Origin: Escherichia coli
GTDB taxonomy: Bacteria > Pseudomonadota > Gammaproteobacteria > Enterobacterales > Enterobacteriaceae
Reading direction: 5' to 3' (one strand)
Length of the DNA: 64,000 nucleotides
Assembly: GCF_041886205.1 (NCBI RefSeq)
Contig: NZ_CP169031.1
The position numbers were made by a program, and so were the translations under genes. This document shows positions 57,568-62,020 of the stretch, in pieces (within the stretch, counting starts at the first letter, position 1; each line of letters begins with the position of its first letter). The notes under the pieces are model-generated. The model was given only the letters and a program-made list of their open reading frames with translations. It was not told the DNA's origin and did not search any database.

Positions 57568-58001
57568 TACAGATAATCTTCCACACGAAGACCTAAACGA
57601 CGGCCTACTTCTTCCAGTACTTTGTGTTCTGCTGGCTCGATTTCACCGTCCGCTTCTGCAATTGTCAGCATGTTAACGAATACTTCTTCCGCTTCTTTTG
57701 GATCGTTTTTGATATCTTCAATTTCGCGAAGGATATTCATGCGACCAACACGGAAGCCAGCTTCCAGTTGCTCGGTAAAGCGGGTAATTGTTGCAGTAAT
57801 TTCGTTACCAAAATGACTAAGACGCGGATTAGAGCGGACAAGCTGATCAAGTTTCGCTGTTTCTTCTTTTTCGATTTCACCATCAGCGGCAGACACCAAC
57901 AAACAGCCACCGATGATGGCCTCCATCAGATCGCGATTCTCAACTTTTTTCAGCTCTACTTTTGCAGAAGCGACTTTCTTGCCGAACAATTTACCGAACA
58001 T
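57567..58001 (-). CDS. tciA: TerB-like tellurite-resistance-domain protein (TciA-like)
   Basis: 144 aa; two Asp/Glu metal-binding repeats (AADGEIEKEE ... EADGEIEPAE) typical of TerB domain. Confidence 0.7.
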   Translation of the reverse strand: MFGKLFGKKVASAKVELKKVENRDLMEAIIGGCLLVSAADGEIEKEETAKLDQLVRSNPRLSHFGNEITATITRFTEQLEAGFRVGRMNILREIEDIKNDPKEAEEVFVNMLTIAEADGEIEPAEHKVLEEVGRRLGLRVEDYL

Positions 58002-58928
58002 TGGTTATCCCTCAATAAAAGTGACATATTTATTAGATTGCGGTGCCGAGTGCCTCCCGGTGACGTTAACCAGTTAACAATTAACGTCGGAATGTTTAAC
58101 CATTAAGGAGGATTGTTTTAACTGTTCCGCGTGCGCTTAGCCGCATTCACCGCAACGGAAAGAGCATTCCTGGTGGACCTGTAGATTGGGATATGAACCC
58201 GTTACAGGAGAATGCTCTTACCTGTTACGTGCTCCGTTTCGTGGAGCTAACGGCGGGTGATCGGGCCGCACCAGACTGGACTTATTTCAGCGTTATGCTC
58301 ATGCCAGAGAATCAAACTGTGATGGTCGGTGCTGAACTCCGACACAGGGTTGTAGCAAGCCCCGCAAAGCGCGCACTACTGTAGTTGCGGCACATCAGCC
58401 TGTGCATTCACCACAATGTTGAGAACACTGGTTGTCACGCTGCAACGCAACATTTATTCGTAGATTGGGATATGACCCCGTTACGCCAGTGTTCTCAACG
58501 TTGTAGTGCCGGTTACGGTTCCGGCCAGGCCTCTTCCTCAACGGGGTGTTCTCCATACGGACTACCGTTTATTGGTCGTTCCTGCGGTTTATGTTGTGAA
58601 GCCAGATGCTTATCTTCTGGTTGCTTCAAAGAGCTGCACTTCATCACAACGGTAAGAGCACTCGATGCATTTAAGCCAAGCCCCATAAGGGAGAATGCCC
58701 TTACCTGTTGTGTTGTGATGACCGGTGCTGATCTCCGGCTTGCGGTTATTTCAGACTCTCACGGGCGTTTAATTGCCCCGCCGAACAGCTCTTTTCCGCA
58801 ATAGCTGCAATGTCTTTCGCGCATCAGCCTGCGCATTCATCACAACGGTAAGGGTACTTCGTAGGGATTCGAACCCTCTGCCAAGCTCGGCGATCTCCGA
58901 CGTCGCAAAATACCCTTACCTGTTGTGC

Positions 58929-59004
58929 TGGTGCCGATTAACGGACTCGAACCGCTGACATCCTGCTTACAAGGCAGGCGCTCTACCAACTGAGCTAAAC
59001 CGGC
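58929..59004 (-). tRNA. tRNA-Thr (anticodon TGT)
   Basis: 76 nt: acceptor GCCGGTT/AATCGGC, D-arm GCTCAGTTGGTAGAGC, anticodon loop CTTGTAA, T-arm AGCGGTTCGAGTCCGTT, CCA encoded. Confidence 0.9.
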
Positions 59005-59006
59005 AT

Positions 59007-59082
59007 TGGCGATGGTGGATGGATTTGAACCATCGACCCGTTGATTAACAGTCAACCGCTCTAACCGCTGAGCTACACCATC
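59007..59082 (-). tRNA. tRNA-Asn (anticodon GTT)
   Basis: 76 nt: acceptor GATGGTG/CACCATC, D-arm GCTCAGCGGTTAGAGC, anticodon loop CTGTTAA, T-arm GATGGTTCAAATCCATC, CCA encoded; 2 nt from tRNA-Thr. Confidence 0.9.
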
Positions 59083-59748
59083 ACTTGCCGGGTACGTCTC
59101 CGGCGAGGGCTTCCACCTCCGTATGCTTTTCGGCGCACCGCGCCCTGGCTGCAATTCGGTAACAGGGGATGCATAACCCTGGCTTCCAGCGTGATTAGCG
59201 CTTTCAGCATGACGGGATATACCCGTAAATTCGTGGAACTGTACCCAAAGTGCTGTTAAGCACCGCTGTTACGCTGAAAAGAAAACGCAACAGGAAAGGA
59301 CGCTGACCAACAGATGGCCCCTTCTCGTTCATCTGGTTAATCACACCAGCGCCCTTACCTGTTGTGTCTCCCCGTTCCCTAATACACAGACGGGGACACT
59401 CTGCGGTCGATTTTTTGACGGGGGACGACTCATACCCCGTGGCGTCTGGCTTCTTAGGCCGCTACCATCATCAGATCATCGTTTGCATTTACTTTAATGG
59501 TCAGTTTCTAAACCGCCGCAAAGTCGCTAACCATGACGAAAACCCTGAAAAAAAACGCCCACCCGAAGATGGGCAAACTGGAAGCTCGTAACGCACTTCG
59601 GAGTTGCCACTTAGGCGCATGGTCAACCTGGCAACTCGGTGGTTTGTCTGGGAGGACTAGGCCCAGCCATGCTTACCGCCGCGCCTGTCGCGGCTAACAG
59701 CTAAATCGCTCTATAAATCACGATTCATTGAGGCGATATTACACTAAT

Positions 59749-59765
59749 AAATTTATTAGAGCAAT
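59749..59765 (-). promoter_or_regulatory. C1 operator (perfect consensus) at dmt 3' end, upstream of tRNA/tci/ban operon
   Basis: AAATTTATTAGAGCAAT, 17/17 to reverse complement of consensus; overlaps a partial forward copy (ACACTAATAAATTT). Confidence 0.75.
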
Positions 59766-62020
59766 ATACCTAAAACGTCATGAGCTACACCTCGAGTGTC
59801 CCCCTTACAAGACACAGAACGTCTGGCAAAAAGAGGTTCCACTCTGAAGCCACTGTCATGATAAAGCTCTCTGATATTTGGCGCGCCACTGTTAGTAATG
59901 AGAACCTTTGCACCTCGACGATGAGCATCCGTCAACAGAGACACCAGGCGTTTTTGCTCTTCAAACTTAAAGTCATGACCGGAATAGTTCGTGAATCCCT
60001 CTGTATTTGGAAGCGGTTCATACGGCGGATCGCAAAAGATGACATCTCCTTCTCCGGCAGCTTCAATCACCGCTGCAAAATCACCGCATACAAACTCAGA
60101 CCGCCCTTCCGCACCGAGGAAGGCTTCCATCTCCTGTAATGGGAAATACGGAGTTTTATACTTCCCATAACCGACATTGAACTCACCGGCCTGGTTGTAA
60201 CGCGTCAATCCGTTAAAACAATGTCGGTTCAGGAACAAAAACGCCGCTGCGCGATGTAAATCATCATAGACTTGTTTGTTAAACGCATTCCGTACTGCCA
60301 GGTATCCTTCCTGTGTGTTGTAGTCCTGGAAGAAACGATGTGCCAGAGTGATAAGTGAATGCGCCTCGCGTTGCAGAGTCTTGTAAAAGTTAATCAGGTC
60401 AGCATTCACATCATTTAGCAGATTTTCCTGGTATCCGGCATTCATGAAGACAGCTCCGCCACCAACGAAAGGTTCAATCAGGCGCTTCCCTTCTGGCAAA
60501 TAGCGAAAGATTTGTTCCAGAACACCAAATTTTCCACCAGCCCATTTGAATATGGACCGTTCGAATTCTGCCGCTGGTTTAACTTTTCGCTCTTTTGTTT
60601 TACTTCCTTCTTTCTGCCGACATACGGCCTTAGTAATCCGATCGCCAATCCAGCGCATTACTGGTATTGCCATACTATTGCCGATCGCTTTGTAACGCGG
60701 TCCGTCAGCTGCAAGCATCGCGGCCTCTTCTTCGCTTAAATCTGGATAGTGATTGCGAAGATATGCCAGTTCATCTGAATTAACTTTTTTACGCTTTTCC
60801 GTCGGGATCAACGTATGCCCATCAGGAAAACCTTGCAGCCTTTCACATTCGACAGGGGTAAGACGGCGGACAGCTACTTCTGCGTTTCTTACTTCATAGC
60901 AAACAGCTGTTGGATTTTTAGCCATTAGAGATGGTGAAGTATTCTTAGTTGCAGCATGTTGTGTACCGCTCATACGCTCAGGAAAAGCCAATGTAACAAG
61001 ATGCTCATGGCTTTCTTGCTCACGTGCCCGCAATGTACCATGCCCTTCTGACCAAAAACCTGCTCCTGTGCTGCTAAAAACGGCAAGGTCAGTGGCATCT
61101 TTAAAATCTCTTGCCTTTACTGTCGATGCGGTTTCATCGTCAATATATTCCCCAAATGCTGCCATCCTGAAAGCGTTTACGGCTTTCGTCGATTTCATAC
61201 CGGGTGGAATGTCAGCGTGTAGGCATGGATTTAGGCTTTCGCCACTGATTGCAGCGCCATTTGCAATAATGGCGGAAGCGATTTCCTTCTTTTTTCGGCT
61301 CGGCGCAATATCCCGGCGCACGCCTTCGAACTCAAAAAGTACCGTTGCGGGATCGAGGTCTGTTCGAGCACTTGCGACAACAAACACGCGTCGGCGTCGT
61401 TGTGCCACTCCGAAGTATTGGGCATCAAGGATTCTCCAGGCCACCTTTCGCTGCGGTCCATAAATACAACCACACTGCGGCCACTTTGGAGCATGGCAAC
61501 CGGTTTTGCCATCCCACCGCCAGAACGCGTTACTTTTTCCTGATTCAGGTCGATCACCTGGTTCAAATGGCGCATCTTCTCCAGCCAATCCGGCAAGGAA
61601 ACATCCGAAGGCGTTATCTGCCGATGACAGGACTCCTGGGACATTTTCCCAGACGATAACTGTCGGTTTGAGGAAGGACTCAGACCGTTTGTCGTCAATT
61701 GCATTTGCAAGCTCCACATACTTCAAAGTTAGCGCGCCGCGTTCATCATCAAGCCCACCACGTAAGCCCGCGATACTGAATGCCTGACAAGGTGTTCCCC
61801 CGACGAGCACATCAGGGGATTCGATTTCCCCAGCCAGGACTTTTTTGGCAAGTTTTGTCATGTCGCCAAGGTTGGCGACATGGGGCCAGCGGTGCGCAAG
61901 AACGGCAGATGGAAAAGGCTCGATTTCAGCAAACCACGCCGGACGCATACCCAACGGTTCCCAGGCAATACTCGCGGCTTCAATTCCACTGCAAACAGAT
62001 CCATAGCACAGCTCTTTCAC
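59756..62020 (-). CDS. dmt: Bifunctional DNA methyltransferase (C5-cytosine + N6-adenine; P1 Dmt-like)
   Basis: 754 aa; N-terminal C5-MTase motifs (SVCSGIEA; [12 protein letters not shown]; ENV), C-terminal Dam-like DPPY motif ([10 protein letters not shown]). Confidence 0.85.

Follow-up and report, generated by a model that had tools for sequence, protein, structure and literature searches.

A probable family of modular structured RNAs with interchangeable tips in the ban operon leader of P1-like phages

Here, we analyzed five hairpin elements (E1 to E5) in the leader of the ban operon of a P1-like phage-plasmid from Escherichia coli (contig NZ_CP169031.1 of assembly GCF_041886205.1). In our judgement, these elements are probably members of a modular family of structured phage RNAs that is not in Rfam, lies on the strand of the neighboring transfer RNA (tRNA) genes and combines a conserved stem, the scaffold, with an interchangeable tip, the cargo. 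The analysis covered a stretch of 64,000 nucleotides (nt), referred to below as the window. Its ban operon leader shows 96.8-99.9% identity to the best-matching P1-like phages (P1, JL22 and RCS47) and 100% identity to one E. coli plasmid. The five hairpins alternate with tRNA-Asn, tRNA-Thr and three elements resembling the RNAs STnc100 and PasD, and together these fill the ~1.5-kb untranslated leader.

Five hairpins on the tRNA strand

An initial annotation, made from the sequence alone, had described at least four imperfect inverted repeats around the tRNA genes. These were recovered by a repeat finder (families D1, D3 and D4; inverted pairs I1, I6 and I11) as well as by a covariance model, R1, which was built from the arms alone; the copies are real, and their number according to the model is five. 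Searching the 64-kb window with R1 gave exactly five matches, all clustered in the leader and all on the minus strand (32.6-48.4 bits, E 4e-13 to 6e-8), while the next best match in the window had E=1.7. In the order of the minus strand, the hairpins are:

59286..59366, minus strand: E5 (R1 32.6 bits, E=6e-8; fold -42.5 kcal/mol, z -5.66)
58841..58927, minus strand: E4 (R1 47.7 bits; fold -42.3 kcal/mol, z -5.98)
58645..58712, minus strand: E3 (R1 48.4 bits; fold -34.5 kcal/mol, z -5.04)
58412..58505, minus strand: E2 (R1 40.2 bits; fold -49.2 kcal/mol, z -6.12)
58151..58229, minus strand: E1 (R1 41.3 bits; fold -35.4 kcal/mol, z -4.87)

All hairpins consist of a basal stem of 20-24 bp that closes a variable tip of 28-54 nt. 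The minus-strand folds range from -34.5 to -49.2 kcal/mol; relative to dinucleotide shuffles, their z-scores lie between -4.9 and -6.1, and none of the 200 shuffles folded as well. Both measures distinguish the strands: for every element the minus-strand fold is 7-10 kcal/mol more stable than the plus-strand fold, and the covariance model scores the minus strand 9-20 bits above the plus strand.

The individual members differ in stem and tip. In E5, the usually bulged A of the stem is paired to an extra U and the cargo comprises ~41 nt; orthologues with covarying stems were found in phage D6 and contig L006. E4 has a 22-bp stem with a bulged A, and its cargo combines a small hairpin with a canonical T arm, AGGGUUCGAAUCCCU (plus-strand positions 58863-58877), which, like the T arm of a tRNA, is separated from the 3' stem strand by 1 nt. 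The 29-nt cargo of E3 is UCCCUUAUGGGGCUUGGCUUAAAUGCAUC; this hairpin is absent from the reference P1 genome. E2 belongs to the stem class GUUGAGAAC/GUUCUCAAC without a bulge, and its cargo consists of a mimic of the initiator tRNA anticodon arm, GGGGUCAUAUCCC (plus-strand positions 58467-58479), and a second hairpin. A mimic of the same arm forms the cargo of E1, CCUGUA-AC-GGG-UUCAUAU-CCC-AAUC-UACAGG (core at plus-strand positions 58188-58200).

A covarying scaffold with a fixed strand

On the minus strand, the consensus of the scaffold reads 5'-YRCAAC(A)GGUAAGRGY...RCYCUUWCCGUUGYG-3'. The stem recurring in viral contigs is CACAAC(A)GGUAAGAGCAUUG...CAGUGCUCUUUCCGUUGUG, in which the bulged A usually follows CAAC and is always located on the 5' strand; in other stem classes (GUUGAGAAC, AUUAAGGAG and AGAAUGGGCGG) the CAAC/GUUG base is kept and covariation occurs elsewhere in the stem. 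For the covariation analysis, 25 diverse members were drawn from P1-like and lambdoid phages, D6, viral contigs and a 109-kb phage-plasmid; their arms were aligned with the tips replaced by GAAA, and one U (the partner of the otherwise bulged A) was removed from the two E5-type members to keep the register. In this alignment 93.4% of the cells are paired, a percentage that is inflated, as members were partly chosen for pairing. Unaffected by this choice are the changes on both sides of the helix, found in 18 of the 20 pairs, and the strand asymmetry. The covariation score of 0.532 compares with 0.217 in shuffles, of which 0/500 reach the observed value, and with at most 0.17 when the partners are slid; one stem pair is predominantly U.G.

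Across 102 distinct hairpins, G.U pairs outnumber A.C mismatches by 172 to 31, which points to RNA of that strand. In addition, tRNAs located within 2 kb of a hairpin lie on the same strand in 522 cases and on the opposite strand in 10. The initial annotation had left several readings side by side. Its suggestion of small structured RNAs on the tRNA strand is supported by the minus-strand folds and by covariation in homologous regions, whereas tRNA-derived pseudogenes do not fit a conserved long stem with a swappable interior.

Unrelated cargos in the same stem

The family was surveyed by scans of viral contigs and an anchored pairing scan together with the covariance model. At 103 loci of lambdoid type we found 86 distinct hairpins, in which dozens of unrelated cargos of 22-95 nt are carried by the same stem; a near-empty version of the hairpin exists as well. 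The cargo can be more conserved than the stem around it, as follows from a comparison of E3 with its counterpart in Klebsiella phage 5 LV-2017: the cargo is identical at 29/29 positions and the stem differs at 7/39, partly in a compensated manner. The cargo is probably the functional part of the module and constrained in its sequence. A search for antisense targets of the cargos elsewhere in the window gave complementarity of at most 11 nt, which is chance level.

Besides that, two observations concern larger inserts. Contigs L083, L098 and L123 share a homologous cargo of ~93 nt (...CUAAAAGUAAU...), whose internal helices vary between the copies and which gave no match in Rfam; it may be a distinct structured RNA on the same scaffold. 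In contig L053 (2236-2365, minus strand), the body of a tRNA-Thr has intact acceptor, D and T arms and an insert of ~74 nt in place of the anticodon arm; it is recognized over 130 nt by the Rfam tRNA model (44 bits), and its immediate neighbor downstream is a scaffold hairpin. This element looks like a natural "tRNA scaffold" carrying a foreign RNA.

Parts of tRNAs among the cargos

Parts of tRNAs recur in the tips. Hairpins resembling a T arm, defined by a stem of at least 4 bp and the loop KUYRANY, are present in 13 of the 86 distinct cargos, compared with 0.19 expected. They directly abut one of the two stem strands, either the 5' strand or the 3' strand, the latter being the topology of a tRNA and of E4. 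Measured by the full form of the arm (5-bp stem, loop UUCRANY), E4 alone comes close, its AGGGUUCGAAUCCCU having a stem of 4 bp. The initial annotation had read motifs of several copies as T arms. This assignment stands for E4, but the minus-strand motifs of E1 and E2, GGGUUCAUAUCCC and GGGGUCAUAUCCC (GGG-UUCAUAU-CCC and GGG-GUCAUAU-CCC), are mimics of a CAU anticodon arm: A58 is missing from their loops, UUCAUAU and GUCAUAU, which match the loop of an anticodon arm.

The form that is common in lambdoid phages, GGGCUCAUAACCC, is identical to the anticodon arm of the E. coli initiator tRNA-fMet; the reference sequence of this tRNA was found with 100% identity, annotated as tRNA-Met, in 5425 of 5426 genomes. 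The pattern GGGNYCAURNCCC occurs in 36 distinct contexts in 1.63 Mb of loci, 34 of them inside hairpin tips, and about three occurrences would be expected by chance in this amount of sequence (an estimate from base composition alone). When nine cargo variants are compared with tRNA-fMet, no change is seen in the three G:C pairs, in U33, in C34-A35-U36 or in A37, and variation occurs at positions 32 and 38; in the outer helix of this cargo 5/7 pairs show covariation. Among anticodon arms, only the fMet type stands out in the cargos. The full CAU tRNAs encoded in the examined loci are of the Ile2 or elongator type, and none is of the initiator type. Of the hairpins with the exact initiator core, one occurs in 2489 of the 5426 complete E. 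coli genomes, where it is unannotated.

None of the five elements is itself a tRNA. As the initial annotation had stated, they do not form canonical cloverleafs: neither ARAGORN nor the Rfam tRNA model (cmscan, E<=10) matched any of them, and the tRNAs called by ARAGORN are Met(CAU), Thr and Asn only.

Array layout and transcription

Read along the minus strand, the array begins after dmt with the ban promoters and operator, followed by a short terminated RNA, E5, tRNA-Asn, tRNA-Thr and E4; it continues with the STnc100-like element A, E3, a spacer, E2, the STnc100-like element B, E1 and the STnc100-like element C, and ends at tciA. The features apart from the hairpins are:

59734..59779, minus strand: P1ban, P2ban and Op72, the C1-controlled ban promoters and operator (annotation transferred from reference P1 NC_005856, offset 56822)
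59556..59575, minus strand: intrinsic terminator of the short RNA between promoter and array (terminator scan)
59007..59082, minus strand: tRNA-Asn (GUU) (ARAGORN; Rfam tRNA model 74.5 bits)
58929..59004, minus strand: tRNA-Thr (UGU) (ARAGORN; Rfam tRNA model 72.9 bits)
58715..58843, minus strand: STnc100/PasD-like element A (by sequence and end motifs in common with copy C, the one matched by Rfam; element A itself is without an Rfam match)
58318..58414, minus strand: STnc100/PasD-like element B (direct repeats D2 and D9, three-copy comparison; no Rfam match of its own)
58039..58154, minus strand: STnc100-like element C, the 5' leader of tciA (Rfam RF02076, 42 bits, gathering score 47, E=4.7e-7)

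The C1-controlled ban promoters are the presumed source of the array transcript, and the co-transcription of the elements with the tRNAs from this region, proposed in the initial annotation, agrees with a promoter and terminator scan of 57900-59900: apart from the ban promoters, no promoter-like site was found, neither inside the array nor at any other point from the ban promoter region to tciA. The repeat finder places an inverted repeat, I2, at 59736-59767 within the promoter/operator segment. With a terminator at 59556-59575 between promoter and array, expression of the array requires read-through. Within the array, a single nucleotide separates the CCA end of tRNA-Thr from the start of E4, as read directly from the sequence. 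Extra tRNAs (Ser, Tyr) are found at neighboring array positions in related phages.

Further observations concern the segments between and beside these features. The "dicF-like region" of the P1 reference (~59545-59650, minus strand) is homologous to the stretch just upstream of dicF in the Qin prophage; in place of DicF itself, it is followed by a different short RNA, which ends at the strong terminator 59556-59575. A stretch of ~190 nt that separates E5 from tRNA-Asn (59100-59285, minus strand) holds no called gene or family member and is conserved in P1, D6 and P7-type phages. A mini-hairpin, CUCCACGAAACGGAG, at 58233-58247 (minus strand) directly before E1 is likewise conserved. The tRNA at 57217-57292 (minus strand), called Met(CAU) by ARAGORN, is trnI of P1 and of the Ile2 type according to the P1 annotation; since it has a CAU anticodon, the ban leader carries three CAU-loop RNAs, namely trnI and the mimics in E1 and E2.

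STnc100/PasD-like neighbors

Each of the three STnc100/PasD-like elements directly follows a hairpin, and only copy C approaches the Rfam threshold. Element A, with ~98% identity to lambdoid phages and prophages, has an outer stem GUGAUGA...UCAUCAC that encloses a 5' hairpin, GCGCAGGCUGAUGCGC, and a 3' hairpin, CCGGAGAUCAGCACCGG. The homologue of element C is the dicB leader, directly after dicF, in the Qin prophage of K-12 (L065 1477-1686). The RF02076 match (58039-58154, model positions 31-147) includes only the final bases of the E1 stem and extends downstream from there; over the hairpin itself there is no RF02076 match, and model positions 1-30 are A/U-rich and unrelated to the arm. This also relocates the conserved block GCRCATCAGCCTGYGCATTCAYCACAA, which the initial annotation had placed upstream of two copies: the block is real (family D2), but on the transcribed strand it lies downstream of the hairpin and starts the STnc100-like element.

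STnc100 and PasD are known to adjoin Q and lysis genes, and PasD is a prophage small RNA with targets known from RIL-seq (RNA interaction by ligation and sequencing) (Zhu, Shabalina and Storz, 2026 preprint, bioRxiv 10.64898/2026.05.13.724894); the hairpins are not described in this preprint. Both kinds of element share loci and probably a transcript, the STnc100-like start GUGRUGAAUGC... following directly after the hairpin, but the Rfam match starts only after the hairpin.

Of note, the stem base GUUGUG (58712-58717 and 58841-58850, minus strand) has two possible partners, its own CACAAC and the ...UCAUCACAAC ending of the following STnc100-like element, and the latter pairing would extend the outer stem of this element to 10 bp. 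Such an alternative pairing could be a structural switch or the reason for the conserved stem base.

Distribution in temperate phages and prophages

For the hairpins of lambdoid contigs, the closest same-strand gene upstream encodes a Q antiterminator (three families) at 41/103 loci and a CI-type repressor at 13/103, and the commonest downstream gene is a holin gene (35/101 loci). In worked examples the order is Q, promoter, intrinsic terminator, a hairpin starting 3-7 nt after the U tract, an STnc100-like element, a second terminator and holin. Among 94 distinct contexts, a U tract is found just upstream of the hairpin in 24 and the conserved mini-hairpin CUCCACGAAACGGAG in 19. Across the loci, the distance from the end of a tRNA-Thr to the start of the hairpin is at most 5 nt in 47 cases; the majority of the family has no tRNA next to it.

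Counting covariance-model-confirmed members only, the matches listed come from Escherichia, Enterobacter, Citrobacter, Kluyvera, Superficieibacter, Pseudocitrobacter, Pantoea, Serratia and Rahnella; unconfirmed 16-mer matches outside Enterobacterales are mostly due to chance. Weaker members were found upstream of the tRNA cluster of a virulent Ackermannviridae phage, Klebsiella phage Magnus (L305 2900-5950, plus strand). This stretch of Magnus is annotated as a run of hypothetical proteins of 30-60 amino acids (aa) and has the conserved junction of 3' arm and GUGAAUGC. A further RNA array may have been mis-annotated here.

Rfam scans of the window region and 25 loci gave no match on hairpins or cargos. 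What appeared were tRNAs, DicF (in K-12), isrJ, an insertion sequence frameshift element and sub-threshold STnc100, and we rejected weak matches to transfer-messenger RNA, YrlA and microRNA models as side effects of the hairpin or T-arm shape. In public records of the examined genomes, the hairpins are unannotated or covered by small open reading frames (ORFs). The searchable literature yielded nothing relevant on the arm sequences or on an initiator tRNA mimic in prophages; a description elsewhere is possible.

Overlapping reading frames upl and plp

The statement of the initial annotation that no ORF explains the elements needs qualifying, as two plus-strand ORFs, the upl and plp of P1, overlap them:

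58193-58384, plus strand: upl, ORF of 63 aa annotated in phage P1
58385-58804, plus strand: plp-like ORF of 139 aa, a shorter version of which (125 aa) is annotated as plp in P1

The RNA array contains both in full, and their annotation is probably an artefact. We regard it as scarcely credible that they are real plus-strand genes and that the repeats are incidental to them. In favor of real genes, both are annotated in the P1 reference genome and the Upl translation matches PHROG families, which are composed of that same annotated ORF. Against them, the plp-like ORF has no PHROG match, and its length tracks insertions and deletions of modules among P1-like phages (125 aa in P1, 139 aa here). 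The upl start codon (58193-58195, plus strand) is merely the reverse complement of the conserved CAU in the E1 mimic, and in D6 the E1 cargo with this start codon is replaced and a tRNA-Ser lies within the region. The sequence constraints seen here are those of minus-strand RNA pairing.

Proposed function of the hairpins

A polycistronic precursor would be transcribed from the repressor-controlled promoter and cut at the tRNAs by RNase P and RNase E. The stems would probably be cut by RNase III; we propose this because their length matches the ~22 bp accommodated by the enzyme (PMC6212723). An RNase III substrate of this size, ~22 bp of mostly uninterrupted double-stranded RNA, has its counterpart in the stems of 20-24 bp with one bulge. 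The hairpins might thereby serve as processing substrates, as the initial annotation had also considered. With a hairpin starting 1 nt after the CCA end of tRNA-Thr, there would be no single-stranded trailer for the usual cut by RNase E. The closed stems could shield the 5' and 3' ends of neighboring RNAs and act as end-protecting, insulating cassettes, which would release or stabilize discrete hairpin RNAs presenting their cargo: in E1 and E2 the anticodon arm of initiator tRNA-fMet, in E4 a T arm that stacks on the stem like that of a tRNA.

One tentative and rather unlikely extension of this model is that the family forms an RNA decoy platform, in which a nuclease-resistant stem displays tRNA parts or other cargos and titrates host or plasmid factors that attack or use tRNAs, with the mimics of E1, E2 and lambdoid phages binding PIN toxins of the VapC/MvpT type. 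The candidate derives from two sets of previous findings: enteric VapC toxins cut tRNA-fMet between A38 and C39 (PMC4105405), and phage tRNAs have been proposed to counter host tRNases, phages generally avoiding to encode tRNA-fMet itself (van den Berg et al. 2023, PMC10264068). What the mimic retains are precisely the features that set the initiator anticodon arm apart, and the array is presumably expressed, with the phage tRNAs, from an early repressor-controlled promoter; both are compatible with such a role. The changes of the P1 mimics at positions 32 and 38 sit next to the A38/C39 bond cut by VapC.

Discussion

Several points weigh against a family of functional scaffold-and-cargo RNAs. 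Knock-down of trnT, plp and upl by CRISPR interference leaves plaque formation of P1 unimpaired (PMC10695390), so that the function of the array is accessory at best. RNase III cleavage is predicted from the length and position of the stems only. The cargos of E3 and E5 resemble nothing known, and generic anticodon-arm-like hairpins (stem of at least 4 bp, loop YU-NNN-RN) are not enriched in the cargos, with 7 observed compared with 7.1 expected. In the P1 copies of the mimic, loop positions 32 and 38 deviate from tRNA-fMet, and only 3/5 stem pairs are kept. To these points we add the inflated percentage of paired cells in the arm alignment. The CAAC/GUUG base of the stem is conserved in sequence beyond the need of a plain double-stranded RNA substrate, which may reflect a protein partner, the alternative pairing with the neighbor's ...UCAUCACAAC end or homogenization by recombination. 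Indeed, recombination takes place at the arms: the stretch separating the 3' arms of E4 and E3 is missing from D6, and contig L034 carries an E2/E1 chimera.

Other explanations have to be considered in this light. If only the double-stranded stem mattered, as an RNase III site or a barrier to exonucleases, the tips would be neutral filler or debris, which agrees with stems of 20-24 bp, hairpins abutting tRNA 3' ends and terminators, the near-empty member and the extreme diversity of cargos. Neutral tips should not, though, be invariant between phages in which the stem has diverged (E3 cargo 29/29, stem 7/39 different), nor is it expected of them that tRNA-part motifs recur in independent cargos far above chance or that a cargo sub-helix covaries, and we hold a role of the stem alone to be unlikely. 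Improbable, too, is a function purely at the DNA level, with repeats similar to miniature inverted-repeat transposable elements or repetitive extragenic palindromes, or "linker" sequences, marking module boundaries and promoting phage recombination. The strand-specific G.U bias (172:31), together with covariation, argues against DNA-only repeats; the bulge lies on a fixed strand, compensatory changes keep the pairing and not the sequence, the orientation to tRNAs is constant (522 vs 10) and the 64-kb window holds no copies elsewhere. The DNA-level view gains from the recombination at the arms (the D6 deletion and the E2/E1 chimera) and from the location of the modules in known mosaic or moron hot spots, the Q-to-lysis-gene interval and the positions beside cI.

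A third group of explanations assigns the elements to transcription elongation, either as antitermination signals of the nut or rrn type or as a shield of the long untranslated transcript from Rho. The 3' arm (UGCUCUUUCC / UGCUCUUACC) resembles boxA, which is UGCUCUUUAACA in rrn operons and CGCUCUUAC in lambda nutR, and it is followed by a GU-rich stretch and a 5-bp hairpin, GCGCAGGCUGAUGCGC, at boxB-like spacing; moreover, the modules lie just after pL-side regions or tR'-type terminators, and the P1 array requires terminator read-through. We nevertheless consider this very improbable: the boxA-like stretch is sequestered in a very stable helix, the stem classes GUUCUCAAC, GUCUCCUUAAU and CCGCCCAUUCU lose the boxA match yet stay family members, Q-modified transcription complexes should need no further antitermination signals, and the conservation of cargos is left unexplained. 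Degraded tRNA duplicates or pseudogenes, the main reading of the initial annotation, are largely refuted and retain an even smaller probability. They would account for the canonical T arm in E4, for the CAU anticodon arms in E1 and E2 and for the proximity of real tRNA genes, including the extra tRNAs (Ser, Tyr) nearby in related phages, but not for the lack of any ARAGORN or Rfam tRNA match even at E<=10, a conserved 20-bp stem found in no tRNA, the many cargos (most of them) without tRNA likeness, or a structure kept by covariation, unlike that of decaying pseudogenes.

Some known elements were rejected by inspection. A CUGAUG...GAAA string after E4 recalls hammerhead or other self-cleaving ribozymes, for which stem II is missing. 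Integron attC sites (RYYYAAC ... GTTRRRY) do not match, as ACACAAC / GTTGTGT misfits the purine/pyrimidine pattern; among the ORFs listed for this part of the window there is no integrase gene. The core motifs of retron non-coding RNAs and of CRISPR-repeat mimics do not fit either, and no reverse transcriptase gene was seen nearby.

The modular RNA family shares features with several known systems. One analogue in architecture is YrlA, the bacterial Y RNA-like family (RF02553), with paired 5' and 3' ends, a long conserved bulged stem and a variable tRNA-mimicking module that includes a T arm. In some cargos the T arm immediately follows the 5' stem strand, as would be expected of a tRNA that is opened in its anticodon arm; we take this order to be that of YrlA. 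Here, however, the stem sequence is unrelated, the elements form arrays in phage operon leaders and most cargos are not tRNA-like. YrlA is encoded beside rsr, the gene of the Ro protein that binds it; the neighbors identified for the hairpins are Q, CI, holin, tRNA genes and tciA. The YrlA model matched none of the hairpins, including the T-arm-bearing hairpins in 7 loci, and its only match in the window region (25.6 bits, gathering score 69) overlaps real tRNAs. The processing stems of RNase III in T7 early mRNA, rRNA operons and the phage T4 tRNA cluster are comparable as helices of about two turns punctuating a multi-gene precursor, whereas the hairpins described here have long structured conserved tips and a sequence-conserved stem base, and their cleavage is a prediction.

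Small regulatory RNAs excised from longer transcripts by tRNA-processing enzymes are known from the same phage group, namely C4 RNA (P1/P7) and CI RNA (P4), which have known antisense targets. Like these, the hairpins are small structured RNAs, but C4 and CI RNA are single genes, and the hairpins resemble them neither in sequence nor in structure model, the region giving no match to C4 in Rfam. Transcripts of tRNAs also give rise to other RNAs, such as the 3'ETS-leuZ sponge of E. coli and, in murine gammaherpesvirus 68, the TMERs, which are tRNA-linked pre-microRNA hairpins. Here too, a non-tRNA RNA directly after a tRNA is freed by tRNA end-processing, as might apply to E4; unlike the scaffold-and-cargo family, these are single spacers or microRNA precursors. 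Finally, the hairpins have in common with the phage tRNAs discussed as a counter to host tRNA nucleases (PMC10264068) that they are tRNA-related RNAs of phage tRNA clusters with presumed lytic expression, but being isolated tRNA parts in a foreign scaffold they cannot be aminoacylated.

For two decades, annotations of the classic P1 genome have shown this stretch as two proteins of unknown function (Upl, Plp); it now appears to be a structured RNA array. The scaffold-and-cargo module is common in temperate Enterobacterales phages and prophages, yet no Rfam family exists for it. Defining the family would remove many spurious small ORFs and would add a missing component to the prophage small RNA loci (STnc100, PasA-D) that are studied in pathogenic E. 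coli. As a compact natural scaffold tolerating cargos of 22-95 nt, the stem may also serve RNA expression in bacteria. The copy of the initiator anticodon arm found in nearly half of the complete E. coli genomes leads to a concrete hypothesis on the conflict between phages and tRNA-targeting toxins.

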